The notes beneath the pieces are model-generated. The model did not search any database. It was not told the origin of the DNA and saw nothing but the letters and a program-made list of their open reading frames with translations. From positions 160,001-224,000 of the IMG/VR virus record IMGVR_UViG_3300033463_000004: a stretch of 64,000 nucleotides of DNA; one strand, 5' to 3'. Shown here in pieces: positions 2,932 through 62,255 of this stretch. Every line of letters begins with the position of its first letter. Within the stretch, counting starts at the first letter, position 1. The DNA is from a virus (taxonomy: Duplodnaviria > Caudoviricetes). Made by a program: the position numbers and the translations under genes.

Positions 2932-4107
2932 TCATTCTTGTTCGATCAAAGGAACGAGCTTTCCGTCAAGCACATCAGTTGCCAGAGCTTCCTCAACTGG
3001 AATTGAATCGTCATTTGTTGTGGTATATTCCATTGTCGTCTGATACAACGTTCCAGGAATTAACCATACAATGGTTCCTTTGTGATATGTTGTACCTTTA
3101 CGATATTCATCACATGTGAGATACAGATTATTGAGATCATACTGCATCTCCTGAATCTGAAATTCCAGAGCATTTATCTTCTGCATAAGAGTTGCAATGA
3201 TCTGTTCAGTTGGATTAAACAAAGACTTGTAGATTCCATAAGAATCGCCAGCCATAATAGTATTCGACATGAATACAGTGAATGCGATACGTAGACGTGT
3301 TGTCACATTCAGCTGAACGGCAATACTCCAGTTCACATTCATTGAACCAATCATCAGTAACACATCTTGTGTCGTTGAGTTGATTGTGTCATGTTGAACT
3401 GCGACATGCGTATTGTTATTTGTCCATTGATAATATGGATTCAATGTATTGACAATATGTTCCTTTGTATCAATAACACCGACATATGCCTCGACACGTT
3501 CGATTGCCAACTGATATACACCGGCATAGTCAAGTTGTGGAATATTTGTCACAGCTATGTTTTTGAATGATGTGATGAAGAAATCATTGATATCAGTATA
3601 ATGGAACAGATGGTTGGAACAAGTTGAATCTACATGGGAAGAGTAAACCACACCACCATTACGATCGCGCAACGTGAAATGGAACCGGAAAATCACACTC
3701 GATTTTTGAATCGGAAGAACTTGTTCCAAAGTTTCATATTGAGAGGAAATCACACTTTCGATGAATGATTTCCATACTGTATTTGTGACAATGTCACCAG
3801 TCATATCAAAAGATCCTGTCAGATTAATGCAAGACGGATCAGTTGATTTCGAAATTCTGGTATAAACATTTTCAGAAACACTCAGTTTTGTGCCATATGT
3901 AGTCGAAGTGTTGTCCAACAAATATGGTGTATTGTTGATGATCATATATGCATTCTCTTGCATGTCACCGGACACAGGATACTGTGCAGTATTTGGTTGA
4001 TGCATACTGGTGCAACAATCACATTGATACAACGCACCTCTTGTGAACGGATATGACACGAGTACCGGTTGCTGAGATCCACAGCCTCCACATCCAATGT
4101 TGTTCAT
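2932..4107 (-). CDS. putative virion structural protein
   Basis: start MNNIGC after GAGGAGG; lies in the late operon; C-terminal short carbohydrate-binding-like segment. Confidence 0.5.
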   Translation of the reverse strand: MNNIGCGGCGSQQPVLVSYPFTRGALYQCDCCTSMHQPNTAQYPVSGDMQENAYMIINNTPYLLDNTSTTYGTKLSVSENVYTRISKSTDPSCINLTGSFDMTGDIVTNTVWKSFIESVISSQYETLEQVLPIQKSSVIFRFHFTLRDRNGGVVYSSHVDSTCSNHLFHYTDINDFFITSFKNIAVTNIPQLDYAGVYQLAIERVEAYVGVIDTKEHIVNTLNPYYQWTNNNTHVAVQHDTINSTTQDVLLMIGSMNVNWSIAVQLNVTTRLRIAFTVFMSNTIMAGDSYGIYKSLFNPTEQIIATLMQKINALEFQIQEMQYDLNNLYLTCDEYRKGTTYHKGTIVWLIPGTLYQTTMEYTTTNDDSIPVEEALATDVLDGKLVPLIEQE

Positions 4108-13400: not shown

Positions 13401-14444
13401 ATCACCATTATCGATGTGATCATATTTATCATTATACACATATTTCGCAGACATCATGTCATAATAATTTACAGCAGGGAAAATACCCGGTACTTCACGT
13501 AAATACTTAATGACATAGATACGGAATTTCGTTGTTTCCGATTTGTAATTCTGCAAATCAGTGATGGTTTTTGTTTGGATATTCGGAATTAATAAACCTT
13601 CTCTTGTGAAATATCCAAAGTTTGGTGCAATATTAACTTCCTTTCGGAAATTGATATCAGATATTTGAACGATACAATTCTTACCAATCAAACTCATATC
13701 ATCAATTCCAAGTTCCGAAAAAGTAAATGTATGGTCTTGTCGAATGATTGATGTTGGCACGTTTGCTTCCAATACAGAAGATTCATCCAATTTCATAATC
13801 ATGAATTCGACATCAGAAGAATACCGCCATCCAATTTTAAATCGGAAACCTTGTTCAGATATACCAACATACCAATCATCTGACATATAACCATTTGTGC
13901 AACAGATGATTGTGAATCCTAAAATTCGTGAGATTTCATTTGATAAAAATCTATCTGCTGGCATAAAGTATCTGCTTTCCGTTTCATAAAAAGCATGTAA
14001 TTTTTGGCGAACAAATTCGTCACGTTCGCCAAAATGCATTTGTGCAAAAGGTACATCAATGATGTAATAATGTGCATATTTATCTTGCGAAACGTGTTTC
14101 TTATCATCATACCGATATTTTGCAATAACACAATGGGTGTTTACCATCATATTACCCATTGCATTTTGTAATGTCATTCGATATGTTTCAATCAAAGATT
14201 GATCAATATCTTCAAATGTATAATTCGATTTCTGCATCAAATCATACAATTGTTGAAATCCTGTATAATTTCCGATAACATTGTATGGTTGCTCATCCAA
14301 TAATGATGACATGGTATCTACAAGTTTTGAATATCGGTCATTGATCGTCTCCCATTTTGTATCATTATATCCCTTTGGACCTTTCGTTCCAGTGAGATAT
14401 TCATGATATTTATAGAACCAATCATTGTAGTTCATAATACTCAT
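7479..14444 (-). CDS. very large virion structural (tail/baseplate-type) protein
   Basis: 2321-aa ORF with late promoter and AAAGGAG RBS; C-terminal PLS...YEFWVNGR motif as in jumbo-phage structural proteins. Confidence 0.6.
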   Translation of the reverse strand: MSIMNYNDWFYKYHEYLTGTKGPKGYNDTKWETINDRYSKLVDTMSSLLDEQPYNVIGNYTGFQQLYDLMQKSNYTFEDIDQSLIETYRMTLQNAMGNMMVNTHCVIAKYRYDDKKHVSQDKYAHYYIIDVPFAQMHFGERDEFVRQKLHAFYETESRYFMPADRFLSNEISRILGFTIICCTNGYMSDDWYVGISEQGFRFKIGWRYSSDVEFMIMKLDESSVLEANVPTSIIRQDHTFTFSELGIDDMSLIGKNCIVQISDINFRKEVNIAPNFGYFTREGLLIPNIQTKTITDLQNYKSETTKFRIYVIKYLREVPGIFPAVNYYDMMSAKYVYNDKYDHIDNGDAKRIVLQDTKADDKLPICTPPISLTRVNEDDDRHAIITKCANVDMDLESVRLKIKVLGENRNNSNPPVTPGQPLSEWYQENVLDLSRNIYNTLYRAYTNYANGAMMTTLIPMDLIQYFRKEIERFYVLSNAQPNFRSIQETPSEFDLLYGDNFKIFVKKICTPLQQPPFSTFGKIKLPDYFPQSTNCVNRPVSEQCLIVLKYNTDEDGCWVFDYPKIEHFHGIDNTFYISSDLNGDELFKFMFLYTDTENPSEREMITMTDDELIDFDLFTKEVDKHMGYIRYWDVSNRLLKLSHMFYRIHDESTELSIITKVMKRKLDGDIFLDYASEVNYELSNVTSDNIQDYTEQSIRAPFTINFLFYTLSLFYRNKNRMQSYLLHMITDKEFYPRYSDLKLNELNHDLEKELINYSVISYSPQATLSTDRSISSMPDISDLSVFNGIQFPLNPSTFVAYEPSSQDVIRYPFTFNVYQSQSPFYMLTSDGLDTEYYLKYNNILSVMGTQPITTYYDDAQLASMISILVSELYDGISVLTTNYVSMWNTQTTIKSIKHTVEKRCDDIQNYLEQRGDNLQVYGQNASTVIEYCSVAHESNPVYFKMNELDTLLYYVKGTVVTHGQPDKTIFTTTDKLLTVIRKLHENTGFDRYAIRNVRRLYIQLKQLNQGMGLYQYAEWLENIDVETMEHLTDYLSNNPNRPYTDSYIIATVRDFLACRMIAQTRISQVQPFLDSLLTTLQTTYFDILIDYCDDVMNNCIFDYYVMNKISFTQTLNAKPAYAEIQLSSNLPHVAFPIRQFTDKTFAILAQVKYDNSGSTYYVTDLIPTCENAFCAGDDINVSVVIFDVNGNEIQTFTDIPVTFTKVGLSSDIRNNIERFLNTQNIPIDVQNVHESFDVNGDGNIIQTRHAELHYELLCGNHFSPITHTSEYCSPYRYELQGPIDKLYLSCEQMNKLSMYDESNRPTRTMFFRPCQVFHIEPVEDTMTSIGGKYFEGQTLYAITDDLLCIFPIIITKIDHSIERGFIEAKVDMQHTKWTETNDIDVIHKYLTTNIDCNIADDNIRNFLDEFSDYTIDVSDPIPGDPPSVQSKSDDIYEKLAEMFGEDGVPNRFHVDDNLHHHFVYIGSADIMTDDAFIELNMINHNFNTYTLPELYTVLRTEPDDHQIWDKEKEVFQQQSILAMTKVREYDARIYALYEQMAEATTEEEKRSIRIQIEECELKKNYWYAHRLRMDEYEAQLESPTTWYNVRAYDDALVYINNGRAHLSRTFHPYVMDLLYSDKMQVLLYDWEHKEWIDPSAYYIETTVENGIHLNDCNDSDTDNVMTSMTIIFNDTYFRSKRLLIYFVYESSDVYSEIELHDMNCVARFQPVISVYADDPNKQNDQYESIRIRKHYDESEIYRSSKLKPLPESFGPVNGFTFDRPSRSGYYTTGSPIRFGDLRFYTENNTYTYQDFDVYIKKPVIDTSIDQKIIDVSYNVSVMHAAENMEAGHVITLISVNDDEFSSFDKTASSVMFTAITTDEGIQIQQSTIQTNDTHDYVCTIIPDESHPIIGGVYIVSVSSTTTTDANNGDWIKLHDISEQGISLLAYRLIPNEVALLPHSGVDLSQFLYLELGNLYQLDTFHDVSEDNTNEDDLYVYYYDKENDIKYPIGNVLTNTSNKRLTIDLTTNTNVDTIRSNHIGICRYATQKIPSDGVVDLTGLIPTPLSRDRYEFWVNGRYVSDPSQIIILSPTSFQLRNMTSLKNLDVVELVDDISINAINRIGNAYVDFDGNIYTSYLDVLKHRADIVDQSIGFIFNQSQKTPLDTYLYDDIRVANNHDYETDIMSYIQSPEITSYNQLHNIPTINSVSLFNLTSTNLGLQEIKNEQLLKAYDKTWKLEGLNGITPFKHLSAYIDTIGKNQILHVQKVEDGYEIYTTGLSDECFTLYISTSKTGKIDEITKTKQIIPMIRPGTRIIVSDTFDGMWIHSTLPNVEPIQIK

Positions 14445-14514: not shown

Positions 14515-14544
14515 ATTTTCATATATATATTATTATTATGAATA
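14515..14544 (+). promoter_or_regulatory. putative early promoter, 30 bp identical to 62226-62255 (minus)
   Basis: ATTTTCATATATATATTATTATTATGAATA present twice; AT-rich like AR9-type early promoters. Confidence 0.65.
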
Positions 14545-14581
14545 AAAGAAATCCATGGTGGATCGAAAGGAGATGATAGAT

Positions 14582-14638
14582 ATGAGTGAAATCGTAATTA
14601 TCACCATCCCTGTAGACACTGAAATCATCTGTGAATGA
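14582..14638 (+). CDS. 18-aa peptide MSEIVIITIPVDTEIICE
   Basis: GAAAGGAG RBS; homologous peptide at 33329-33388. Confidence 0.6.
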   Translation: MSEIVIITIPVDTEIICE

Positions 14639-14781
14639 TAATGTGTGACGAGTCCCCAATTTAACTCGGAACGTCAGAAACCATGAATTTCTAATATTCA
14701 TTATAAGAAGGGTAAGAAACCCTAAAACAATTAAATCCCTCACGCCACGAGGGATGCAACAGAATCAAGGAGGAACTTATT

Positions 14782-15369
14782 ATGAAAGATTACAAAAGAG
14801 AACTGAGTTTTGCAGAAGACCGTCTGCAAAAATACGTCGCAAAACGAGATGAAATAATCTCGCTTTATGGAGCAACATTTGTACCGAAAGAGCTCGAGAA
14901 TACGATTATCGAAGCTCAAAACGAAGCATATGCCGCAAAAGCGGCATATGAAGCACAGTTGTTAACCAACAGCAATTGTGCTACTGTAAGAGCAAATACT
15001 AAAATCGATCGTTTAGTATTCGCTCGAAACAATGTTGAATTCTATCGCTCGCGGAAGAGCGATGGTTCATCATGGGGTATCGCGTTTATCAGTACTGATA
15101 AACGAGTTGATTGTTGCATCATGATGTCGGAGACATCCGGCAGCGCAACAATTCTCAGCTTCAACCCGGCTGAGAAAACAATTTTAAACGAATATGTTAT
15201 CGACATCGACAACGCCAGAGCACATGAAGACCTTTGGTCTGTCATGTGCACCGCAGGTTTCGATTACCTGCAAGAGGCTGAATTGAAATATATTCAGACT
15301 CAAATTTTAACCGAGCTTAAAAACCTCGGTTATACAGAGCAGGGTCTGCGACTCTGCAAAGAATTCTAA
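14782..15369 (+). CDS. hypothetical early protein (N-terminal coiled coil)
   Basis: 195-aa ORF, AAGGAGG RBS. Confidence 0.7.
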   Translation: MKDYKRELSFAEDRLQKYVAKRDEIISLYGATFVPKELENTIIEAQNEAYAAKAAYEAQLLTNSNCATVRANTKIDRLVFARNNVEFYRSRKSDGSSWGIAFISTDKRVDCCIMMSETSGSATILSFNPAEKTILNEYVIDIDNARAHEDLWSVMCTAGFDYLQEAELKYIQTQILTELKNLGYTEQGLRLCKEF

Positions 15370-15398
15370 AAAATAAAAAAAAAAGAAGGAGACAGAAA

Positions 15399-15602
15399 AT
15401 GAATAAACAATTTATCGAGTATGTGCGGGCATACATGCCCGTACATACAGTAGTAAAATGTAATGGTGAAAGAATCACCATTACCGATGCAGCCGTTGAT
15501 CGACAGATAATTATCGATATCAACGGAAATATTATCAGAAACGACGGGGTTCGTCCTATCGTTTCAGAAATGATCACAGTGCTCACAAGAGCACTGCAAT
15601 AA
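15399..15602 (+). CDS. hypothetical protein
   Basis: 67-aa ORF, AAGGAG RBS. Confidence 0.6.
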   Translation: MNKQFIEYVRAYMPVHTVVKCNGERITITDAAVDRQIIIDINGNIIRNDGVRPIVSEMITVLTRALQ

Positions 15603-15682
15603 AAAGTATGAGCTGGCTGCAGTAAGGCATTCAGTGCCTACAGATTCCTGCAGCCGGCGAAAAATAAAACAGGAAGTGGTAA

Positions 15683-15711
15683 AATAAGCGGGGCTTTAGG
15701 CCCCGCTTATT
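15683..15711. terminator. bidirectional terminator
   Basis: AATAAGCGGGGC-TTTAG-GCCCCGCTTATT between convergent genes. Confidence 0.75.
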
Positions 15712-15720
15712 ATTATTTTT

Positions 15721-33213: not shown

Positions 33214-33219
33214 TATATG

Positions 33220-33245
33220 TAATGGGGCGCATATGCGCCCCATTA
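33220..33245 (+). terminator. terminator (same hairpin as 62269-62290)
   Basis: ATGGGGCGCATATGCGCCCCAT plus T-run. Confidence 0.75.
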
Positions 33246-33328
33246 TTTTTTTATATATTTACATATATATACTTTTAAAGATGAGCTAATGTTCACACAA
33301 AATTATGTCACCAAAAGAATGTGAAAAC

Positions 33329-33388
33329 ATGACTGAAGAAATCGTCATTATTCAGATTCCGAAAGGAACTGAAATTATCTGTGAATGA
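33329..33388 (+). CDS. 19-aa peptide MTEEIVIIQIPKGTEIICE
   Basis: homologous to 14582-14638; follows ACATATATATAC promoter-like motif; weak RBS. Confidence 0.5.
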   Translation: MTEEIVIIQIPKGTEIICE

Positions 33389-33482
33389 CAGTCACAGATA
33401 TTGAATATATAATATAACTCATTCGCTATCCGAAAACGAGGTGATATATGTGTGAACCATAACTCATTATCAGATTAGGTAA

Positions 33483-33497
33483 AAACGATTTCATAAT
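33483..33497 (+). promoter_or_regulatory. putative late promoter
   Basis: AAACGATTTCATAAT. Confidence 0.5.
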
Positions 33498-33519
33498 ATA
33501 TTTTTGGAGGTGTACCATA

Positions 33520-43687: not shown

Positions 43688-44015
43688 ATTTGATCCATCA
43701 TACATTTTTCGTCCAGCATTTATAAATGCAATGCAATCAAAGCTCCTTCGGGTTATGAAAAAATACCCGAAGGAGCAAAAGTTTCGTATGATACTTGAAC
43801 CAATATCTGATGAGAATAAAAATGTGGTTATATATATAAATGATTATCTCGAGAAAATGACACAAGAACATTCAGAATCATTACATAAGATATTAGAGTC
43901 AAAATCTGCAGAAGAAATAAATGAAATGTGTTCTGACTGGTTCAAGTCATATTTCTTAAAACCTTTAATAGAAGGAGTGAATAACAATGACACGAAGAAA
44001 GAAGAAGAAACTTGA
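43662..44015 (+). CDS. hypothetical protein
   Basis: packed ORF. Confidence 0.55.
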   Translation: MKKIIVADKFDPSYIFRPAFINAMQSKLLRVMKKYPKEQKFRMILEPISDENKNVVIYINDYLEKMTQEHSESLHKILESKSAEEINEMCSDWFKSYFLKPLIEGVNNNDTKKEEET

Positions 44016-44766
44016 GAATCGTGCAGGATTCTTTCATTATCGCGATTATAAATTGCGTGTGAAATTGTTGTATCATGCGATAGACGTGGTAATGAAATCA
44101 TCAGCGGCATATGCATTTAAAGTAGTTATGTTTGAGCATTTCAAGGGGTTGTTGCTGGGTCAAGTTCCGAAGAAGATTTGTGATCAGAATCTGAGATATA
44201 AACCTTTCCTCACAAATTGTGATGGAACGTTAGTCGGTAGGCATGCTGATATTGCGAAACCTGACGTGATTCCATCAATGAGCATGCGAATGGTTGGTGA
44301 TAAAATCCATTCATTCTCCATCGATGAGGATTCTTTCAAGAACGGATACAAACCCGATGAACTTGCACCCCCACTTCCAAAGGGTCCGCTTGACGGTCAT
44401 AAGTCGATGTCATCAGCCAAGCTGTCAGCTATTCACAATAATCCCACAATGGCGTCAGCCAAGTTGACGATTGAGCACGGGGATACAGATCGCATGAGTA
44501 GGCAGATTATGGCTGACGAATATATCAAAGGTGGATCTGCCATCGAATATCCTTCAAGTGCAACGATCGATCTGCGAAAAGCTGTCGGTCGATATGGTAA
44601 CATGTCTATCAAGGGCAATGAAGAAGACGTGTCTGAGCCGATTCATCTCGGTCCGATTGATCTGGGTCCTACTGATGGTGAACGTATCGAAGAACATCTG
44701 CTTCAGTCAGAAGATAAGAAGCGTAGGTTTGCATCCAACGCTTGCGAGGCTTCTGCATATGATTAA
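43987..44766 (+). CDS. hypothetical protein, basic N-terminal module (MTRRKKKKL)
   Basis: AAGGAG RBS. Confidence 0.6.
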   Translation: MTRRKKKKLENRAGFFHYRDYKLRVKLLYHAIDVVMKSSAAYAFKVVMFEHFKGLLLGQVPKKICDQNLRYKPFLTNCDGTLVGRHADIAKPDVIPSMSMRMVGDKIHSFSIDEDSFKNGYKPDELAPPLPKGPLDGHKSMSSAKLSAIHNNPTMASAKLTIEHGDTDRMSRQIMADEYIKGGSAIEYPSSATIDLRKAVGRYGNMSIKGNEEDVSEPIHLGPIDLGPTDGERIEEHLLQSEDKKRRFASNACEASAYD

Positions 44767-44778
44767 GGGGGAATTCTG

Positions 44779-45003
44779 ATGGATAAGGGTAAACGACCTA
44801 CGTGTGTCGAATGCAAATGGTATTCCGAAAAAGGTGGTCCGATCGGTTCATGCGAAAACACGGGTTATCGACTCGAATTAGAAGACTTCTGTAGGGTTCC
44901 CAAAAATCCGATGATGATCAAAGGTCCGAAAACTGGGGTTCCAACATGGTGCCATAAATTCTGGACAAGAAAGGAGGATTCAGATGAACTGGAGAAAACG
45001 TAA
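44779..45003 (+). CDS. small Cys-rich protein
   Basis: CVEC...C...C...PTWC. Confidence 0.55.
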   Translation: MDKGKRPTCVECKWYSEKGGPIGSCENTGYRLELEDFCRVPKNPMMIKGPKTGVPTWCHKFWTRKEDSDELEKT

Positions 45004-45565
45004 AAGATTGCGTCGTATTGCACAGCATTATGGATACACCCATTACTGGGAATACAAACGTAATCTGAAGTTCTGCATCTATTATACTGCATTTCAGAAC
45101 GCACTTGACAATGGGGAGATCCAATGGTCAGAAGTGCTTCCTAAGATGAATCAGATGTTTTGTAAAGCCGGACTTCCTGAGTATTGTATGACTCAGGAAG
45201 AATGGTATGCAAAAGTAATGGAGTCTGTCAATGAGCGGGAACGTCAACAAGACGAGGTGATCTTTCAGTTTATTGACGACGACTTCATGTCTCCATCCAT
45301 GAAAGTCAACAAACATGCCAATATCGTTGTCAAGAACAACTTCCACAAAAAGCTTGAAGATGCTGTAAGTGAAATGTGTGATCGTGACAAACCTGTTCAA
45401 CTTGGTTATATCGACTACCTTGGTATCGAAAAACTCAATGGTCCGATTAAAGAATTTCATGAAGCCGTCTGTGAATGTTTACGTGACCCAAATCCTATCA
45501 GTGAATATCATGGTATTGTTGAGGAGGTGACAGATAATGAATCGTCGTCAGAAGAAGAAACTTGA
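44984..45565 (+). CDS. hypothetical protein, basic N-terminal module
   Basis: MNWRKRKRL; AAAGGAGG RBS. Confidence 0.65.
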   Translation: MNWRKRKRLRRIAQHYGYTHYWEYKRNLKFCIYYTAFQNALDNGEIQWSEVLPKMNQMFCKAGLPEYCMTQEEWYAKVMESVNERERQQDEVIFQFIDDDFMSPSMKVNKHANIVVKNNFHKKLEDAVSEMCDRDKPVQLGYIDYLGIEKLNGPIKEFHEAVCECLRDPNPISEYHGIVEEVTDNESSSEEET

Positions 45566-45929
45566 AAAACGCCGTGGATACTTCAGATATTCCAAATTCA
45601 AGGAATGGAAACGGATTCTTGATTTCGGTATGAAGCACGGTGGGCAAACGTTCTACGAATGGTTTGTCGAAGGCAAACATCGTTCCGAAGCACATAAAGC
45701 TGGAACTGGAGTTGACATGTTGCTTATCACAACTAGCAAATCTGGAAAAGCTATCAAGCATATGCAGATTGCACAGGGGTGCTATCCGTCAGCAATGACA
45801 TCATCTGATGATGCATCGAATATCACACTGAGTTTCACAGCGGACTTTCACAATGGTGAATGTACAACCGACGTATTTCAGGAAGTGTATAACAGATATC
45901 AGGAATGGTTAGGAGGTATTCAGAAATGA
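45537..45929 (+). CDS. hypothetical protein, basic N-terminal module
   Basis: MNRRQKKKL; GAGGAGGTG RBS. Confidence 0.65.
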   Translation: MNRRQKKKLEKRRGYFRYSKFKEWKRILDFGMKHGGQTFYEWFVEGKHRSEAHKAGTGVDMLLITTSKSGKAIKHMQIAQGCYPSAMTSSDDASNITLSFTADFHNGECTTDVFQEVYNRYQEWLGGIQK

Positions 45930-46258
45930 AATGTCTCGAGTTTCCAAAGAAACCTTTCGAACAGTGTAAGTTCGACTATCCGGACGAGATGAAAAAGCTT
46001 GTCGACCTGCTTGAAGCAGATGGAATCAAAATCAATTGTGATTTGATGACACTCGAAAAGCTGTGGTTTGCCTATTCAGAAACATGGTCCGCTCACTTCC
46101 TGACAGTGGGTAACAATGATAAAGACGATACTTATCCAAGATTCCTTGAATGGGTCGAGGACATCGACATTGATACCGCTGATCATATGAATTATGAAGG
46201 AGAACAACTCGCGAGAGTTTGTCGTCCGTGGGATGATGAGGAGGATGATGATGAATGA
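45926..46258 (+). CDS. hypothetical protein
   Basis: AGGAGGT RBS. Confidence 0.6.
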   Translation: MKCLEFPKKPFEQCKFDYPDEMKKLVDLLEADGIKINCDLMTLEKLWFAYSETWSAHFLTVGNNDKDDTYPRFLEWVEDIDIDTADHMNYEGEQLARVCRPWDDEEDDDE

Positions 46259-46473
46259 AATTGAATAAGGTGATTGAGGAGCTACAGGCTCTCGCAGCCA
46301 AAGGATATGGCGAATATGATGTCACGTTTGTATGTGACGCCACTCAAACATATTTCAATGACTCAGAGTACACATATGGTACCGATAGTCGAACATTCGA
46401 TTTCGATGATCCAAGCCGCACACATAAAGCATATGATCAGCAGAAGATACTCGAGTTGCATTCAAAATGGTGA
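46255..46473 (+). CDS. hypothetical protein
   Basis: GAGGAGG RBS. Confidence 0.55.
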   Translation: MKLNKVIEELQALAAKGYGEYDVTFVCDATQTYFNDSEYTYGTDSRTFDFDDPSRTHKAYDQQKILELHSKW

Positions 46474-46477
46474 TTAC

Positions 46478-46510
46478 AAATGAGGAGCCCACACGGCTCC
46501 TCATTTTTTT
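46478..46510 (+). terminator. terminator
   Basis: AAATGAGGAGCC-CACAC-GGCTCCTCATTT plus T-run. Confidence 0.75.
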
Positions 46511-46558
46511 TTATATTATGACATGTATATCATTCATTCGAAAGGAGGTTGAATAGCC

Positions 46559-46849
46559 ATGCATTGGAAGAAACGTCATAAATTCCGGAAGCTTCTGCAC
46601 AGTAAGCTGCGGAAAAAACGTTGGTGGATGTGGATACCCGAAGATTTCAAATCATATGCTGATTACAAACGATACGTTCGTTCTTATTGCAGACGAAATG
46701 TACCATGTCCGCCAATGGATCCAGAAGTGAGAAAAGCCATAATCCAATCTGAATGGAATGGAATGCCAATACGAAAATGGAATGAGCAATTTGAGGATCG
46801 GATAATCCAAGGGATTGTCGATGCTGAAATAGAACGCTTAATGAAATAA
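46559..46849 (+). CDS. basic hypothetical protein
   Basis: AAAGGAGGT RBS; CATGTATATCATT promoter-like motif upstream. Confidence 0.6.
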   Translation: MHWKKRHKFRKLLHSKLRKKRWWMWIPEDFKSYADYKRYVRSYCRRNVPCPPMDPEVRKAIIQSEWNGMPIRKWNEQFEDRIIQGIVDAEIERLMK

Positions 46850-46864
46850 GAAGGAGGATAAACA

Positions 46865-47188
46865 ATGAAATTTATGATTTGTGATAAGGACGCATATCAT
46901 GAGATACCAACTCCGTCTTCTCAACTTGTAATGATCGATGGTCGCGCGTGTGCTCCGGGTCATAGGGTTGTAGATAAATATGCTGCAATCATGTACAACT
47001 ATAATCTGAAAATCGGAGAATGGTATCCATGTGAATTAGTATCCACTATGCCACTGCCCGATATGTCCGTATATGCATATGATATCCAAATTACTGGAAC
47101 GCTGAAATATATTTGCGTACGGAAACAGGAGATTGACGATGGATACGTCAAGCTCGATTTTGAGGAAGGAGAAACGGATGGAACGTAA
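46865..47188 (+). CDS. hypothetical protein
   Basis: AAGGAGG RBS. Confidence 0.6.
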   Translation: MKFMICDKDAYHEIPTPSSQLVMIDGRACAPGHRVVDKYAAIMYNYNLKIGEWYPCELVSTMPLPDMSVYAYDIQITGTLKYICVRKQEIDDGYVKLDFEEGETDGT

Positions 47189-47672
47189 GTTTACCGTGAG
47201 AATCAACGGCATTCCGCTCCATAAATGGTATCTGTACAATGAAGAGGGTATGCAGCATGTATGTCCTGAATGCGGGCATGTTGCCACTGTATCACAGAGC
47301 GAACTTGAACTGTGTCAAACATTGCAGCCTCGTGGTGTCAACATGTTCTCAAGACTGTATGAGAAAGTTGCACCACATATTCAATGCGTGAAATGTGGTT
47401 TTCGCAATCCGTATTGGATGTTCTGCATTCGGAAATATTCGAAAGAACTGACAATTGCCGATGTTGTCAAGAATTCGATCTCTAAAAAGATCTTTGATGA
47501 TCGGTCAATAATCTTTGATATGCCTTATACTCCCAGAGAGAATTGGGTTTGGAATCATTTGGCCAAGGATTTCGAAGGGGATACCATTGATACAATTTAT
47601 CTCACACCCAAACGTGGGCAATCACGAATGTGGCGTGGTTTGACAAAAGCATATACAAACTTTGGAGGTTAA
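47178..47672 (+). CDS. Zn-ribbon protein
   Basis: CPECG...CVKCG. Confidence 0.6.
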   Translation: MERKFTVRINGIPLHKWYLYNEEGMQHVCPECGHVATVSQSELELCQTLQPRGVNMFSRLYEKVAPHIQCVKCGFRNPYWMFCIRKYSKELTIADVVKNSISKKIFDDRSIIFDMPYTPRENWVWNHLAKDFEGDTIDTIYLTPKRGQSRMWRGLTKAYTNFGG

Positions 47673-48048
47673 TAATGGCAACACCGATTCCGAAAAGTGA
47701 TGCCCCTGTAGAAAAGGTCAAGGTTTCACACTGGATGCAAGTGAAATATGATCCGACCCTGTTGGAAGGTGCTCTCGAGATTGGTTGGATGGAGATGCGA
47801 AACAATTACAAAGACTGGGAAGCTGATGGAGACCGTCCGCTCACAGAAGACGATTTCTATTGGCTTGTTGATGTTGCGCTGAATGAGGCATATCCCTGTT
47901 GCTGGTTTCCATATACAAACAAATATCTCAGGGAACTGAAAATTGAGTATATCCGCGTTGGCGAAATGCGGATCAGTATCAATGATTACCACAAGCTCTT
48001 TACTCGCAGGGGTTTGACAAAACCATATACAAATTTCGGAGGTTAATA
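47637..48048 (+). repeat. 38-bp direct repeat (47637-47674 and 48011-48048) flanking one gene
   Basis: 35 of 38 positions identical; encodes GLTKxYTNFGG-stop plus RBS. Confidence 0.8.
47675..48046 (+). CDS. hypothetical protein
   Basis: GGAGGT RBS. Confidence 0.6.
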   Translation: MATPIPKSDAPVEKVKVSHWMQVKYDPTLLEGALEIGWMEMRNNYKDWEADGDRPLTEDDFYWLVDVALNEAYPCCWFPYTNKYLRELKIEYIRVGEMRISINDYHKLFTRRGLTKPYTNFGG

Positions 48049-49226
48049 TGGAACTGTTGAGAACTGATTCAAAGGAACAACTGTTTGAAAGCTATACGGA
48101 TCTGAAGTATGTTGATGGTGGTTGGATGCGTGCAGCAGATCGTATTGACAACATTGTCGACAACCATATCAACGCGGATCCGATCAAGAACCGCGATTAT
48201 CTTGTTGAGCTTCGTTGCAGATACGACGCTGATATCAATGCTGGACGTCCGTATTCTTTCACGACAGAATTTATCTATCATGAAGATGAACGTGACGGAT
48301 ACTGCTGGTTGAATGACTGGTATGAAGGTCAGCAAGATATTGATGTCATGCGAATTATCGCAGTGGATGAAATCGATGAATTCGAGTCAATCGAGTACAC
48401 AACATCGAAACTGTCCGAAGGCTATATTCCGGCAGACATCACGTCCGAGAACTATGCAAACATCTTTGATGCTACCATCAAATCGTGGATGAATAAGCAT
48501 GAAATGTATACAGACGTGATTGTCCGGCTTGCATACAAGGTGAAAAGCGATCCGGAAATCAGGATTCGCAATGAGTTCCTGGAGTTCAACGGGAATGAAG
48601 GTATCTTCGAATGGACTCACAAATGGGAACCTGAAGATCTGGAATTTTTCTATGCTACAGGGGTTATTGATCCGGATGACATCGAGAAGTATACCACCGT
48701 GTATACGGAACATGATGCACCGTCATATCGTGAAACAATCCGCAATGTATCTGGTTCGGTTGATGGTAAGACATTCGAACAATGGGCAAAGGGTATATAC
48801 AGGAAGCTTGACGAAACCCTGAAGAAGTTTGCAACCGAAAATGATTGCATGGGTGAAGAGCTTGTTGTTCTTTGGGTACATACCGAGGATTCGCAGTGGG
48901 TTCTTCGGAAAGACGTTTTCCATCTCTTGCATTCTACATTATGGGATTCACCCGAGTTAATGTATCAGGTTCCCGGTGGTGCATTTGCCTATTATGAGAA
49001 TATCATGATTTGGGCAATCAGACCGCTGTCACAGATCAAAGAATTCGATCATTGGTTTGTGTCGACACACAACTATGCCGTCAAACAGAAAACGTCGGTT
49101 CCGATTTCACAAACGAATCTGACACCGGAACAACTCAAGGACCTGAAAGCGATGGCGTTGGCTCCTGTGATAGATGCCATCAACGAGGAAATGAAATCGG
49201 GTGACAAGAATGATTCATCAGTTTGA
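48048..49226 (+). CDS. hypothetical protein with 2-3 internal domain repeats
   Basis: repeated V.L...EF.....W...W.....I..D.I..(F/Y). Confidence 0.65.
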   Translation: MELLRTDSKEQLFESYTDLKYVDGGWMRAADRIDNIVDNHINADPIKNRDYLVELRCRYDADINAGRPYSFTTEFIYHEDERDGYCWLNDWYEGQQDIDVMRIIAVDEIDEFESIEYTTSKLSEGYIPADITSENYANIFDATIKSWMNKHEMYTDVIVRLAYKVKSDPEIRIRNEFLEFNGNEGIFEWTHKWEPEDLEFFYATGVIDPDDIEKYTTVYTEHDAPSYRETIRNVSGSVDGKTFEQWAKGIYRKLDETLKKFATENDCMGEELVVLWVHTEDSQWVLRKDVFHLLHSTLWDSPELMYQVPGGAFAYYENIMIWAIRPLSQIKEFDHWFVSTHNYAVKQKTSVPISQTNLTPEQLKDLKAMALAPVIDAINEEMKSGDKNDSSV

Positions 49227-49716
49227 TTTGTACATGCTGATACACGGATATCTGTCGGGTGTTTACAAAGAGCAAATGGAACTGGGTCTGGTCGGAGGAT
49301 CGAATTTCTCATTTCACAAAATAACATTCGATCTCCGATCCAACCAGAATCTTCGTGGTACATATAATCGTTTGAAGGTCAATCGTGTGACGAAAGCGGG
49401 TGTTTCATATTGGGAGATTGCCCAGACGATTGTTAGTCCAACATTCAAGACAATCGGATTCGGTTGTTTGATTCAGATATACGATGATGGAACAATCGTA
49501 TTTGTTGACTCTAAGAATCCGATTCAACCGGTTGACAAAGGTTTTATGCTCGGATTACAAACTCGCATCGAGAAATACATCCAAAAGCATAAAGACGATC
49601 CAGCAATATCAGAATCAAATGCGGGAATCATGATCGAAATGAAAGACGGCGAAGTTCAAGTTCATGATGAACGTGATGATTATGACGAAGATATTTCAAA
49701 GTATTGGGGGTATTGA
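49210..49716 (+). CDS. hypothetical protein
   Basis: packed ORF. Confidence 0.6.
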   Translation: MIHQFDLYMLIHGYLSGVYKEQMELGLVGGSNFSFHKITFDLRSNQNLRGTYNRLKVNRVTKAGVSYWEIAQTIVSPTFKTIGFGCLIQIYDDGTIVFVDSKNPIQPVDKGFMLGLQTRIEKYIQKHKDDPAISESNAGIMIEMKDGEVQVHDERDDYDEDISKYWGY

Positions 49717-49717
49717 T

Positions 49718-49984
49718 ATGACACGACGCAAGAAGAAAAAGCTCGCTCGCCGAATGGGACTTCGACATTATCGCGATGCGAAAGCTGTCAAATATGCGGC
49801 AGACATTCTCATGAGAATGTCACACACGCTTGAAGAATCCTCATGGCCGAAACGCGATGACATCACGAAGTTACAAGAGGATTACACCAATGACATGTCA
49901 AAAGTATATCGTCATGTTTTGCGTACAGGACAGGTTCCTGTGAACAATAAAGAACTTATGGAGGTCATTCAACATGGGGAATGA
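49718..49984 (+). CDS. hypothetical protein, basic N-terminal module
   Basis: MTRRKKKKLARRMG. Confidence 0.6.
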   Translation: MTRRKKKKLARRMGLRHYRDAKAVKYAADILMRMSHTLEESSWPKRDDITKLQEDYTNDMSKVYRHVLRTGQVPVNNKELMEVIQHGE

Positions 49985-50783
49985 AAATTGCAAAAAGCTT
50001 ACCATCACCCAATCGGTCGACATCGCGATCGAAGAACGTATGCTACATGCACGGCAGTTAGAAAAAGAAATGACCGCGCTCGAATTGAGCTTTCCGGATA
50101 TCTATAAAGATATATCAGCATATATCTGTGCAGATGCTGCACTCGCCGGTACACGGTCTGGTATCAAACTTGAACATGAGTTCATGGGAAACTATGCTGA
50201 ACTTGATGATGTTCTTAAGAAACTTCTTGAACGTGTTCCGCTCAAACCGATCAACTACGGCTATTGGCTTATCAGGGATGGTGTAGGTAAAGATTTCCCA
50301 TTTATGGAACGGATTCAATCATGGAATTATGATCGTTGCATGCACAACCGCAGCAATCCCGGATATATGATGACAGAATACAGTGTTTTCTCTAATTCTG
50401 CATTATACTTTGCATTTCCGAAATACAGCGGTGCAATTCTGTATATGAGGAGAATGTTTTGCGGCAGTTCCATAAAACCTCAGCTTGCGCTCGAAATCGG
50501 TCTTCAGATCGTCGATAATTATGATGCATATAAAGAACCTTGCATCGACCTTCAGGAATATCCGGCGATAACATACGTGGTATTGTCGAATGAAACCGAC
50601 ATGCGTGCTCTGGCGCGTACCGGTATTTCGGATAGGGATCCACATCCGTTTCAAAGCAGGCTTACATTATTGAACCTTGGCTACTGTCAGGGTATCTGCA
50701 AGACTATTGCAGAAATCATCCTTAGTGAACATCCTGATGTGTTCGCATACAAATATCCGAAAACTACTAATGAGAAGGAATAA
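49974..50783 (+). CDS. hypothetical protein
   Basis: GGAGGT RBS. Confidence 0.65.
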   Translation: MGNENCKKLTITQSVDIAIEERMLHARQLEKEMTALELSFPDIYKDISAYICADAALAGTRSGIKLEHEFMGNYAELDDVLKKLLERVPLKPINYGYWLIRDGVGKDFPFMERIQSWNYDRCMHNRSNPGYMMTEYSVFSNSALYFAFPKYSGAILYMRRMFCGSSIKPQLALEIGLQIVDNYDAYKEPCIDLQEYPAITYVVLSNETDMRALARTGISDRDPHPFQSRLTLLNLGYCQGICKTIAEIILSEHPDVFAYKYPKTTNEKE

Positions 50784-50879
50784 TCAAATGAGTATTAAAG
50801 TACACGATAGCGAAGACGCCATCAGAAACCTTGAGTTCATTAATAGGGTTGAAGTCAAAACAGAGGAGGAATAAATAAA

Positions 50880-51734
50880 ATGGAAATGAAACTGATTGTA
50901 TATGATCGGAGAGATGCCATCACATATATGGCTCCGATTATCACGAATGCATGCAGAGATTTCGCCAGCAAGGTAGCGCCACAGGGTGGTGGTGTCTATT
51001 CGCAGGTGACAGTTGATTTCAATTTGACATCGTTCGGATACACAATTAACAAAGTTAATCCGAAAACACTGATCACGGTCATGGTTGATGACAGTTATCA
51101 TCGTCCAATGATCATCGTCGGTGTTCCATTTCTCAGAGACGATCTCTTCTTCAAAATTACATTCGTAAATACGAATGAAGATGTTAAAGATTATCCAGAA
51201 GAATGGGCATTCAAACTGGAATATTGCAGCGATCGGTGGGGTCACAACGTGATTGAAAGGAGAGCTGTAGCGCTCTCAGTGTCACAATTAAGCGCGAAGT
51301 TCATCGAACTGGTCGAACTCATGGAACGGCTTGTGAACTTCGGAACCAGTAACACATTCATGACAATCTCAATGCAAGACAGATGTGATGCTGAAGAGGA
51401 TGTGGGCGAAGAAGCTGACGAGGAGATTCCCGTCGAAGAATCGGATGAAACACCGGAAGAACAACCAGTTCACAAAATGCGAAGATTCGCAGGCATGATG
51501 CCCGTGAATGAAATCGAACGGACAGAGATATTCAAAGACAAATATGGACATGATGTTCGTATTGACGCAGGTCCGAACGGCTGGACAGTTAGATACGCAG
51601 ATATGAGTTCCAATTACAAAGACGAGTCTATCGGCACTAATGCAAACTTCAAGAATGCATATGACACTGCTGCGACTTGTGTTGGACCTCTCACACCTGT
51701 GAAAACGGAACGAAAGGAGGGAATTGAAAAATGA
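50880..51734 (+). CDS. two-domain hypothetical protein with acidic linker
   Basis: GAGGAGG RBS. Confidence 0.65.
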   Translation: MEMKLIVYDRRDAITYMAPIITNACRDFASKVAPQGGGVYSQVTVDFNLTSFGYTINKVNPKTLITVMVDDSYHRPMIIVGVPFLRDDLFFKITFVNTNEDVKDYPEEWAFKLEYCSDRWGHNVIERRAVALSVSQLSAKFIELVELMERLVNFGTSNTFMTISMQDRCDAEEDVGEEADEEIPVEESDETPEEQPVHKMRRFAGMMPVNEIERTEIFKDKYGHDVRIDAGPNGWTVRYADMSSNYKDESIGTNANFKNAYDTAATCVGPLTPVKTERKEGIEK

Positions 51735-51964
51735 AACGTACAAATCGTGCGGCACTTCATGCAATGCCTACTGATCAATTGGCAATGTTCATCAATCATG
51801 TTGATTGCAGGAACTGTGCTTACTGTGGTGAGGATGGGGTGAGCTGTACAATCCCCGACCGTCCCATTCCTTCAGATAAATGTATCGAAGGTATCGCAAA
51901 ATGGCTTGACCAGGAAGAATCGGAATTCCTGAGTCATCTGGAATCAGAATACGAGGAGGACTAA
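51731..51964 (+). CDS. small Cys-rich protein
   Basis: CRNCAYC...C...C.EGI.KWL. Confidence 0.6.
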   Translation: MKRTNRAALHAMPTDQLAMFINHVDCRNCAYCGEDGVSCTIPDRPIPSDKCIEGIAKWLDQEESEFLSHLESEYEED

Positions 51965-51966
51965 TA

Positions 51967-52422
51967 ATGAACAAGGATAAGGCATATGAAAATCTGATGA
52001 AAACAATGGCAGCGAATGCTGCTGAAAATGGTATTCCGTGGCCGCCCATTGAAAATCTGGGCGATCAGGCACATACTGCTGAAACACCGAACAAAGAATC
52101 AAAAGGTGCTTCATCAACGCCCAAAAAACAGGTGGGTGGCATCCCCGCAACAGTCAACATTGATATCGGACCCAAATACAGAATTCAGATTGATGAAAAT
52201 AACCCGTCTTCAATCGAGGCAGTCAAAAAGCTCATCAATTCGGAGCCTGTTATTTCACCGACGACAATGGCGACTGTTGCAACAGAGATCATCGGCATTC
52301 TGACCAAAAACAATATTGTTCCAACAATTCATATTAATCTGGGACCGCATGTCGATATTATTCGTAAGAAGCCTGCAGAGAATACTGATACCAAAACTGA
52401 CAAGGGGGACAAATCAAAATGA
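51967..52422 (+). CDS. hypothetical protein
   Basis: GAGGAGG RBS. Confidence 0.55.
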   Translation: MNKDKAYENLMKTMAANAAENGIPWPPIENLGDQAHTAETPNKESKGASSTPKKQVGGIPATVNIDIGPKYRIQIDENNPSSIEAVKKLINSEPVISPTTMATVATEIIGILTKNNIVPTIHINLGPHVDIIRKKPAENTDTKTDKGDKSK

Positions 52423-53432
52423 AAATCATTCCACAAGCAGCATATTATCTTGATACGACGGGAATGTCCCAGTATCAAATCATCGAGAAAGCTGGAAGAA
52501 CCTGCTACAAGTCTGAAGACAAAATCACTGAGGAATCCGCAACAAAGTTTGTTGCAGCTCTTGTGAGAAGGTGTCACCTTGCAATGCTCGAATTCGGTTA
52601 TCTCTACATGAAGATTACCGATATCGATTTTCTCGAATTCTTTCAGGCGACAAAACCACATTTCATCCATATGGTTGGTGAGTATGCTGTTGGTAACTTC
52701 CGAGCATTCTACGACTGGTACAAGGCATGGCTTGACGGCAAATGGATGATTGATATGGATTATTATGATGGATTCATGGATCTCATCTGGTGTCTGGCTC
52801 AGAAGTATCCTGAAGTTTACAAAGACCTCTATGACAAGCTTCATGAGAAGTTTGAACCGGATGTGATCGATATAGAACGCATGAATGTCGATGACGTGAA
52901 ATATCCGTTCATGTTCTTCACAAAAGAGGAACTGATCGCTGATTACAAAGCATCTGGAAACTTTGACAGCTATCTGGTTGACATTATTCCGCACATCGTG
53001 ATGTTCACAACAAACCGCGGTGTTACACATGAACTGGTAAGACATCGTAATGATGAAACATTCGCAATGGAGTCAACAAGATACTGCAAATACGATGTGG
53101 AAAAGTTCGGTGGAGAGCTCACGATCATCGAACCGATGCAGGAAATCCGTGATAATCCGGATGCATATGAGAGATGGTTGAAGGATACCAAGGCTGATGA
53201 AGAATCGTATATGTGGTTCGTCAAGCATGGCATTTCTGCACAGGCTGCTCGCGGAAGACTTCCGCATGACATCAAAGCTGACATCTGGAATGCTTGTTTC
53301 GAGTCCCAATGGCAGCATAAACTGAATTTGAGAATGCATGGAACGACTGGCGCTCCGCATCCGCAGTTCAAAGAACTGATGGAACTTGTGTATCCAGACC
53401 TCGTGAAGTATTCCGAAGGAAGACTGAAATAA
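52419..53432 (+). CDS. thyX: flavin-dependent thymidylate synthase
   Basis: IEKAGRTCYKS, H.AMLEF, RGVTHELVRHR...ESTRY, ARG.LP, LR...APHPQ. Confidence 0.9.
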   Translation: MKIIPQAAYYLDTTGMSQYQIIEKAGRTCYKSEDKITEESATKFVAALVRRCHLAMLEFGYLYMKITDIDFLEFFQATKPHFIHMVGEYAVGNFRAFYDWYKAWLDGKWMIDMDYYDGFMDLIWCLAQKYPEVYKDLYDKLHEKFEPDVIDIERMNVDDVKYPFMFFTKEELIADYKASGNFDSYLVDIIPHIVMFTTNRGVTHELVRHRNDETFAMESTRYCKYDVEKFGGELTIIEPMQEIRDNPDAYERWLKDTKADEESYMWFVKHGISAQAARGRLPHDIKADIWNACFESQWQHKLNLRMHGTTGAPHPQFKELMELVYPDLVKYSEGRLK

Positions 53433-60428: not shown

Positions 60429-60461
60429 AATAAATGGGCGGGGATGTCCCCGCCCATTTAT
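60429..60461. terminator. terminator
   Basis: ATAAATGGGCGGGGA-TG-TCCCCGCCCATTTAT. Confidence 0.75.
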
Positions 60462-60473
60462 CATTTTTTTATA

Positions 60474-60515
60474 AAAAAAGAGAGATGTCGATGCGACACA
60501 ACATCTCTCTTTTTT
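60474..60515 (-). terminator. terminator closing the ncRNA operon (bidirectional)
   Basis: A7-GAGAGATGT...ACATCTCTC-T6. Confidence 0.7.
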
Positions 60516-60516
60516 C

Positions 60517-60871
60517 ATTTCCAGATCTTGTGGACATGGCATCGGAACAATACCAGATAGCTGAACATATTTACTCGGACGTCCACGTTACCTTTCAATA
60601 TCTATCTGATACCATGAACCTCAAGGATTCGTTTCCACCAATAATTGGAATGATCTGATGGTCAGTGCTAGCCCTAACCATTGATGGTTGCCAACCCATC
60701 TTTCCAATTTTGATGTCTCCTCCAAACACACGCCACATGTTGGAGGCCCGCTGTTCATTTATATCCCGCATCGACAGCCGGCGGACAGTAAATACATTGA
60801 ACGAACCAAGCAATGTATCTACCGTGACGGAATTGGGGTAGCTTGATTCCAGGATAGCCAGTCCTGGAAAT
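60517..60871 (-). ncRNA. candidate large (~350 nt) multi-domain structured RNA
   Basis: terminal ATTTCCAG/CTGGAAAT pairing and at least 6 helices; G-U pairs form only on the minus strand; no RBS-led ORF; followed by a terminator. Confidence 0.65.
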
Positions 60872-60880
60872 ACAAACATC

Positions 60881-61297
60881 TCAGAGATCAAAGAGTTGTG
60901 CCAACTCTTTGGCCTCTTGGCGCGATGTTTTATTATGGTTAAATCGGGTTATGCTTCCCTTTTTTAACCACGGCTTTAGTTTCCATGCTTTGTTCCTTGG
61001 AACATGGAAACTTATTTGTCTTCGTGTTCCATCGACTTTTATGTCGAAGAACACCAAGACACATCTGAAACCGTTTTGGTCTTTGCCCGGTTTCAGATAA
61101 TAATAGATCCCGCACGGAGGAACGGAATCTATCATTTTTAATGTATCAACCAGAATGTCTTCTTTATGTCGATATCTGGTTGATACCAAATTGTCCCGAT
61201 GCAGATGAACATCATAAATATTCTTACCTGCATCGGAACAGGCTTGAGCAAGACAGATTCTCCGTAAAATCTGTCTTGTCATTTTGGTTTGTGCCAT
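60881..61297 (-). CDS. small basic protein (QISFHVP motif), possible RNA-binding partner
   Basis: 138 aa, K/R-rich, AAAGGAGGTG RBS; layout loosely YkyB-like. Confidence 0.7.
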   Translation of the reverse strand: MAQTKMTRQILRRICLAQACSDAGKNIYDVHLHRDNLVSTRYRHKEDILVDTLKMIDSVPPCGIYYYLKPGKDQNGFRCVLVFFDIKVDGTRRQISFHVPRNKAWKLKPWLKKGSITRFNHNKTSRQEAKELAQLFDL

Positions 61298-61346
61298 TAT
61301 GATGACACCTCCTTTATCTAATTCTAATAAGAGTATTACATCATTC

Positions 61347-62126
61347 TCATGAGTATTGTTTCAGGCGGTTATCCCATGTCTGTGCGGTCTCTAATGCATT
61401 GGTACGCATCGTTTCCACTGCATCCCAGATATCTCCGGAAAATGCTTCGTTGCCGATGATTTGTCTCGCAAGACTCTCATCTGATGAAGCGATCGCTTCA
61501 TCACACGATTTGACTACAGCGATCGCAGCAGCCTTAGCATCATATGCCAACTGCTTGAGTTCACGCAGTTTCTCACCATATTGATTGTTCATCACATCGA
61601 CTGATGTGCCGTCCTCAAGTACGCGTTTCAGGCTAAGACACTCCCAGTCAAATTTGCCATACTCTTCATCGCGGCGGGGTCCATATCCTCTGGTACGGCC
61701 ACAATTCAGTGCTGCTTTCACAGCATTGAGAGCAATGTCGGTATAACATACAAATGTTATCCGACATTTGCAACCTGCCGGAATGACTTCAGCTCTCATT
61801 GTATCATGCGATAGGTCTTCCGACTCAAATGTTACGACATCCGGTGCTTTACCGGATTCGATCGGAATCCGTCTCTCTTCAATGAAGACTTCGTCGCTGA
61901 TATCGCGATAGATGCTCGTGCAGCCACGGCACTGCTTCTTTACATAGCCGATCCAGCCATAGGACTGGAGCACGGGTTGGTTGTTATTGTCTCTCATAAA
62001 CTGTCTTGTGTAATCGTCAGTGGTAGGGGTTTCATTGAGTAAGTGTGCATAATCAGCCGGTGCACTCGAAGCAACCAGATCCGTTATAAACGTAATGCAG
62101 GCTGTCAGAATATATTTTTCTTTCAT
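61347..62126 (-). CDS. stand-alone Cas7/RAMP-like protein with helical C-terminal extension
   Basis: ITFITDL (first strand), FMRD..QPVL...GYVK, VFIEERRIPI, EVIPAG, C-terminal G-loop G..RGYGPRR.EEYGKFDW. Confidence 0.65.
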   Translation of the reverse strand: MKEKYILTACITFITDLVASSAPADYAHLLNETPTTDDYTRQFMRDNNNQPVLQSYGWIGYVKKQCRGCTSIYRDISDEVFIEERRIPIESGKAPDVVTFESEDLSHDTMRAEVIPAGCKCRITFVCYTDIALNAVKAALNCGRTRGYGPRRDEEYGKFDWECLSLKRVLEDGTSVDVMNNQYGEKLRELKQLAYDAKAAAIAVVKSCDEAIASSDESLARQIIGNEAFSGDIWDAVETMRTNALETAQTWDNRLKQYS

Positions 62127-62225
62127 GGGTTTCCTCACTTTCTCCCGCTGTGCGGGTTGCGACGGCGTTAAGCTTTTACGCCGTCTATTATTTATTTTCT
62201 TTGAATATTAGATAATACTATCTTC

Positions 62226-62255
62226 TATTCATAATAATAATATATATATGAAAAT
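62226..62255 (-). promoter_or_regulatory. putative early promoter driving the RAMP operon
   Basis: identical to 14515-14544. Confidence 0.65.

Follow-up and report, generated by a model that had tools for sequence, protein, structure and literature searches.

VIPR is a newly described RNA-guided system from which class 1 CRISPR has been proposed to descend. Its published description allows for degenerate repeats (bioRxiv 10.64898/2026.04.26.720920), and cryo-EM analysis has shown that the thumb and the helical bundle create a gapped code, with W178 stacking on the repeat guanine G2 (bioRxiv 10.64898/2026.04.26.720927). Related phages target one another with VIPR and deploy decoys made of RNA (10.64898/2026.10.15.759431); a word search of the same preprint found neither a paralogue nor a protein inhibitor, and decoy RNAs are the only VIPR counter-measures that we found described.

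Here, we report the analysis of a Vipr paralogue encoded by a 263-kb jumbo phage, a virus record of 262,694 bp found in bovine gut metagenomes (cow rumen). The window that we analysed is a stretch of 64,000 nucleotides, positions 160001-224000 of this record, and the locus, 60474-62255 of the window, is flanked by a DNA-ligase block on one side and by a convergent block with a UvsX-like recombinase on the other. An earlier note, made from the letters of the window alone, had proposed that a lone Cas7/RAMP-like protein, a small basic protein and a structured RNA form a new ribonucleoprotein system at this site. We find that the locus is a putative early-type expression slot with two independently moving cassettes.

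Organization of the expression slot

The elements of the locus, in window coordinates, are the following.

62226-62255, minus strand: predicted phage promoter motif, AT-rich, 30 bp identical to 14515-14544
62127-62225, minus strand: 5' leader, in which two hairpins (62161-62185 and 62144-62156) precede the ribosome-binding site GAAAGTGAG
61349-62227, no strand assigned: optional block of 879 nt (leader and RAMP gene), missing in X5, with about 270 unrelated bases in its place in X13 and L007
61347-62126, minus strand: degenerate paralogue of Vipr (RAMP), 259 aa, with a helical hairpin fused to it
61617-62126, minus strand: RAMP domain, residues 1-170, which retains the RRM core and the scaffold of the G-loop and has lost the thumb motif, the Trp of the G-loop and most of the alpha-bundle
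61347-61586, minus strand: acidic helical hairpin at the C terminus (residues 181-259), with homology to the free-standing 97-aa phage protein P0006
60881-61297, minus strand: 138-aa basic protein, pI 9.9, of an unnamed rumen-phage family with 62 further members
60519-60880, minus strand: hairpin-rich tail, 362 nt, which travels with the 138-aa gene; candidate ncRNA
60595-60879, minus strand: 94-aa ORF in the tail, beginning 1 nt past the 138-aa stop
60471-60518, minus strand: intrinsic terminator hairpin and U-run
60429-60462: second, two-way terminator hairpin, common to the unit and the convergent gene

Most of the layout described in the earlier note was borne out, namely, a minus-strand unit bounded by a promoter and a terminator, with a hairpin-rich leader, two genes and a higher GC content than its flanks. 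Both ORFs are present, the leader folds with a z-score of -5.1, and the GC content is 0.47 in the 259-aa gene, 0.40 in the 138-aa gene and 0.45 in the tail, compared with 0.32-0.37 in the flanking genes. The promoter motif is found in 12 copies in the genome, one of them ahead of the full-length vipr gene described below, and this recurrence marks a promoter class; expression from the copy at 62226-62255 is predicted to be early. The ribosome-binding site is common in the phage genome. A similar leader layout precedes the genes of two short RAMP homologues, P0004 and P0005, as well as the RAMP-less gene of P0006, and because of the latter we rejected the leader as a dedicated RNA partner of the short RAMP. 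Elsewhere in the window, a block of small genes at 44000-53400 has a GC content of 0.41-0.44 vs 0.33-0.37 around it and is probably an acquired region.

The short RAMP protein and its Vipr relatives

The 259-aa protein was assigned to no named family by sequence searches of Pfam, PHROGs, NCBIfam and PDB, and profile HMMs of Cas7/Csm3 gave no match above the cut-off; its homologue P0004 matches Csm4 weakly (E 0.002, below the cut-off). The AlphaFold model (pLDDT 80) nevertheless adopts a RAMP fold over residues 1 to about 175, with Foldseek matches to Csm3 and type VII Cas7 at E of about 1e-7, a Z-score of 12.9 against Csm3 (rmsd 3.6 Å over 162 residues) and an Atlas RAMP match with TM of 0.53/0.64, in agreement with the Cas7/RAMP-like call made from the letters. 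The shortened thumb and the added helical tail likewise stand: the thumb motif is absent, and residues 181-259 form a hairpin that is missing from the two nearest RAMP homologues. This hairpin is 33% identical to P0006 and, on that similarity, looks like a fused neighbour gene. The non-CRISPR context also holds, given that the whole phage genome contains neither Cas1 nor a CRISPR-like repeat-spacer array.

The RAMP is not, however, a lone one as had been thought. Two RAMP genes were found in the phage genome, that of the short protein and, 28 kb away behind the same promoter motif, a full-length Vipr of 241 aa (250102-250827 of the record), to which the short protein is 28% identical (E 6e-19). 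A scan for 5-nt periodicity identified arrays with the consensus N-G-Y-N-N at 239.6-240.2 kb and 247.4-250.0 kb of the record and the full-length gene together with these arrays is arranged like a published VIPR system (bioRxiv 10.64898/2026.04.26.720920). This complete VIPR locus (239.6-251.0 kb, with the full-length vipr gene at L005:14102-14827) lies within a tRNA cluster, and its NGY-NN arrays, at about L005:3600-4200, 11370-11620, 12600-13990 and 14890-15010, are unusually long (over 1.3 kb) and degenerate, with phase shifts. Under a 1-nt skip rule, the guides of this genome and of locus L018 match this genome only at chance level, so nothing points to self-targeting in need of damping. 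At the short-RAMP locus itself, no periodic tract was found (best array score 11.8 vs 14.5-17.5 for the arrays), and lag-5 autocorrelation is absent from the tail and the leader (0.29 in the tail vs 0.46 in the arrays).

Locus scans run with a single protein gave no relatives, and alignment searches were needed. The nearest homologues of the short RAMP are P0004 (177 aa) and P0005 (148 aa), which are 36-40% identical to it and are encoded on related phage contigs, with similar promoters and leaders and no arrays nearby. Five viral-contig loci found by alignment search carry Viprs with period-5 tracts in the vicinity. In a midpoint-rooted tree of nine proteins, three short and six array-linked, the short RAMP, P0004 and P0005 form a single clade (100/100) with long branches (0.6-1.2); no more than three short sequences are known, and co-occurrence with a full Vipr was seen for the source genome only. 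A 268-nt piece of the short RAMP gene is also present in run X21. P0004 is preceded by a gene-free leader of about 330 nt (L009:2930-3272) beside a tRNA cluster whose long non-coding stretches are shared with L005:8000-9500.

The differences between the two groups are concentrated in a few regions. The thumb motif RPLRAxTxxGxR is present in the six array-linked Viprs and absent from all three short proteins, in each of which the helical bundle is cut or deleted, and the G-loop Trp (W178 of the SUSP1 Vipr) is replaced by R, M or H, whereas R179 is kept. The short clade retains the RRM core, ExxPxG, the helix-1 Lys, and the G-loop Gly, Arg, Tyr-Gly and Phe, and has its own set of conserved residues; all three genes are intact open frames with the promoter and the ribosome-binding site kept. 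The reference for this comparison, the SUSP1 Vipr (L063:28474-29061), was located via published residue numbers, 9 of 10 of which agree; position 175 is Val in GenBank KT454805.2 vs T175 in the structure preprint. It is the top ORF for the profile of the nine proteins, although weakly (hmmsearch E 0.13; HHalign E 7e-4 over 45 columns), and the G-loop aligns, with D177-W178-R179 lying opposite Q-W-R in the array-linked Viprs and opposite P-R-R in the 259-aa protein; for R138, H17 and K33, no reliable mapping was obtained.

With its RAMP fold, its phage origin outside CRISPR and its homology to array-linked Viprs, the 259-aa protein derives from the known family Vipr. With the guide-reading parts lost and no array present, it lacks the marks of a working VIPR system: the thumb, bundle and Trp, a vrRNA and a linked vap gene are all lacking at the locus, where a vrRNA was defined as having 9-16 pentamer repeats (YNNGG or related).

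The 138-aa protein, its tail and the independent movement of the parts

The 138-aa protein represents a family that is widespread in rumen phages, without a known fold and often found amid structured RNAs and ribozymes. The family shares the motifs AQxxSDAGK, YxxK, IVYF and QISFH, with invariant S, D, K, Y, K, F, S, F and H; compared with the related locus L007, the gene shows 11 synonymous and 2 amino-acid changes, a ratio indicative of purifying selection. Sequence searches of Pfam, PHROGs, NCBIfam and PDB gave it no name, and its poor model (pLDDT 62) has no clear match among solved folds (Z at most 4.1). Faint matches to YkyB (PF14177; 2 of 54 members, E 0.014) and WDGH (PF25311; 1 of 54, E 0.008) share a similar S/F-H motif, but these profile matches are below all cut-offs and the WDGH model compares with that of the 138-aa protein at a TM of 0.39, so that this link is a lead only; a literature search for a connection of YkyB or WDGH with RNA returned nothing relevant. 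The family bears no likeness to SUSP1 Vap1 (HHalign 0.16%), the one Vap included in the comparison.

Several features were noticed around other members of the family. Two matches to the 138-aa profile, at L024:2460-2876 and 3001-3420, are probably tandem genes. Ribozymes near family members include a pistol (L057:3153-3216), hammerhead-like sequences (L047 and L049, about 250 nt behind the homologue), and twister-sister and twister ribozymes (L035:4098-4177, L049:3948-4027 and L057:3873-3923); a group I intron (L033:3700-4018) lies in a gene beside a member. The word CGTTAAA after a hairpin recurs in the tails of L008, L036, L039, L040, L043, L044, L045 and L057. Inspected by eye, several of these tails have a downstream complement of the loop and probably form small pseudoknots that resemble the pistol ribozyme in its 5' half; among them, only the full pistol has an Rfam match.

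The earlier note had described an ORF-less, structured tail, which stands only in part. The tail folds better than its shuffled versions (z -4.65 with the terminator and -3.3 without), but it is not strictly ORF-less, as it contains the 94-aa ORF, and its folding is not special: the z-score equals the median of 30 gaps of at least 300 nt in the genome (-3.4, best of both strands) and is reached by 4 of 12 coding controls. The 94-aa ORF itself is frameshifted in relatives and therefore is probably spurious, not a gene. With z-scores of -8 to -10, three long intergenic stretches of the window (14515-14781, 15370-15720 and 33214-33519) fold much more strongly than the tail; the same holds for several further gaps in the genome, and part of this may be due to terminators. 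Rfam and ARAGORN gave no match in the window, so the tail belongs to no Rfam family, and it contains no 5-nt repeat. Of 20 substitutions in near-identical strains, 6 break predicted pairs vs 8.5 expected (P 0.14), which is no proof that the pairing is conserved.

Behind the stop codon, about 20 distinct 138-aa loci carry structured DNA (z -1.3 to -6.9), and some of these tails contain a pistol ribozyme, a hammerhead core, the CGTTAAA word (8 of 20) or small ORFs; the tail in the window has no pistol, hammerhead core or CGTTAAA word. No distant homologue of it was found, and tails across the family are homologous only in close pairs. A long gene-free stretch behind family members counts for little because such gaps are common in these loci: by the same crude rule, they occur for 64% of all genes there, compared with 21% in the source genome. 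Covariation between two sequences (L038/L043) is too thin and concerns another tail than that in the window. In a single RNA run, a low-depth contig spans 60827-61091 and also the upstream gene, and therefore demonstrates neither that the tail is expressed nor that it is missing. The tail may represent a small RNA or, alternatively, a long 3' region with a stabilising effect, and a specific pair of the 138-aa protein and the tail RNA is possible.

The relatives show which parts of the unit travel together. In three near-identical strains (L007, X5 and X13), the RAMP gene is absent, whereas the promoter, the tail and the 138-aa gene are retained. A failure of the three parts to co-occur in related phages was what the earlier note had named as refuting its proposal. 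In L007, the 138-aa gene is 96% identical, the tail differs by about 18 substitutions in 410 nt, and the unrelated bases take the place of the RAMP gene; a 54-kb contig of X13 has a replacement of the same kind, and in X5 a 908-nt contig joins 61348 to 62228, skipping the leader and the gene. Conversely, P0005 occupies the same chromosomal site with neither the 138-aa gene nor the tail, and neither of the two nearest RAMP homologues has these elements as neighbours; no RAMP gene was found near the 138-aa family at about 20 other loci, within the flanks fetched. A complete 277-kb relative encodes a full Vipr, with no short Vipr and no 138-aa gene, and the short gene is therefore dispensable. 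The 138-aa protein and the folded RNA form a separate cassette, the small unnamed protein with its structured 3' region, which travels without the RAMP cassette and does not partner the short RAMP.

Possible functions and comparison with known systems

The optional cassette of 879 nt very probably encodes a Vipr-derived RAMP that has kept the RRM core and the G-loop scaffold, has lost the parts by which guide repeats are read and presented to DNA, and is fused, in this strain, to a small helical protein. We tentatively favour a role of the short RAMP as an optional dominant-negative or decoy Vipr subunit. Made early, it would bind vrRNA or enter Vipr filaments, where such a subunit could neither flip out the repeat bases nor cradle the skipped target base; VIPR silencing would thus be blunted, be it that of co-infecting relatives or the phage's own. 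The decoy idea raised in the earlier note stays plausible, with VIPR in place of CRISPR as the target and with no guide role for the downstream RNA. On the other side, the thumb aids RNA binding in RAMPs, so that its shortening may have cost the protein both RNA binding and co-assembly, and the long branches fit relaxed selection or a new, unrelated job as well. The complex prediction for the full Vipr with the short RAMP scored 0.00 and carries no weight either way. Even more tentatively, the guide-blind Vipr clade could be the first VIPR inhibitor that is a protein, acting as a poisoning or capping subunit that rumen jumbo phages gain and lose at early slots.

It is somewhat unlikely that the short RAMP has left the VIPR pathway and binds another RNA or single-stranded DNA, such as its own leader or host or phage transcripts, without a guide code. 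Such re-purposing would fit the retention of the RRM core, the helix-1 Lys and the G-loop glycines and Arg, the conserved residues specific to the clade, and the setting of all three genes, which follow a phage promoter and a hairpin leader and have no arrays close by; yet the leader layout is shared with the RAMP-less P0006, the ribosome-binding site is common, and no partner RNA is conserved across the three short-RAMP loci. We consider it improbable that the gene is a redundant vipr copy decaying under relaxed selection in a gene-swapping slot, with no present function. The loss of several invariant residues, the long branches, the absence from sister strains and the fusion with a neighbouring gene are what such decay would leave, but three divergent open frames retain the same core residues, promoter and ribosome-binding site at 36-40% identity, and the losses cluster in the thumb, the bundle and the tip of the G-loop.

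In class 1 CRISPR effectors, RAMP paralogues that have diverged serve as caps, and the short gene has the promoter class of the full vipr gene; a helper subunit of the phage's own VIPR, capping or nucleating its filament or recruiting an effector via the helical tail, is nonetheless distinctly improbable, being absent from the complete VIPR-bearing relative and the sister strains, with the tail missing in two of the three members and the gene 28 kb from the arrays. Finally, a single ribonucleoprotein system of the RAMP, the 138-aa protein and the downstream RNA, as originally proposed, is suggested by the one promoter and one terminator that enclose all three and by the resemblance of the layout to vipr-vap1-vrRNA in SUSP1. 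The parts assort independently across strains and relatives, the tail lacks the 5-nt period of the arrays, and the 138-aa family is unlike SUSP1 Vap1, so this model appears largely refuted by the sequence comparisons and is highly improbable.

If the guide-blind clade does act on VIPR, it would show how duplicated RAMPs specialise, a step that has been proposed between VIPR and the multi-RAMP effectors of class 1 CRISPR, and the short Vipr would be a living example of such duplication and specialisation. A natural paralogue without the guide-reading parts also offers a ready test for a protein off-switch of Vipr tools.

Among described systems, the short-RAMP locus resembles VIPR (bioRxiv 10.64898/2026.04.26.720920; 10.64898/2026.04.26.720927) in having a phage-encoded single RAMP outside CRISPR, with the RRM core and the G-loop, followed by a gene of similar size and non-coding DNA, as in SUSP1. 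It differs in the lack of a repeat array, thumb motif, G-loop Trp and bundle, in the extra helical tail, in a neighbouring 138-aa gene that is dissimilar to Vap1 and unlinked in other strains, and in the presence of a second, complete VIPR in the same genome. With the Cas7-group RAMPs (Csm3, Cmr4, type VII Cas7 and Csf2), the short RAMP shares the fold, but it has only about 10-15% identity to them and a short thumb, and is accompanied by neither cas1 nor a CRISPR array. The solo vrRNA decoys of satellites and phages (10.64898/2026.10.15.759431) are like the short RAMP in the proposed role, the blunting of a rival VIPR; these decoys are RNAs, whereas the candidate described here is a protein.
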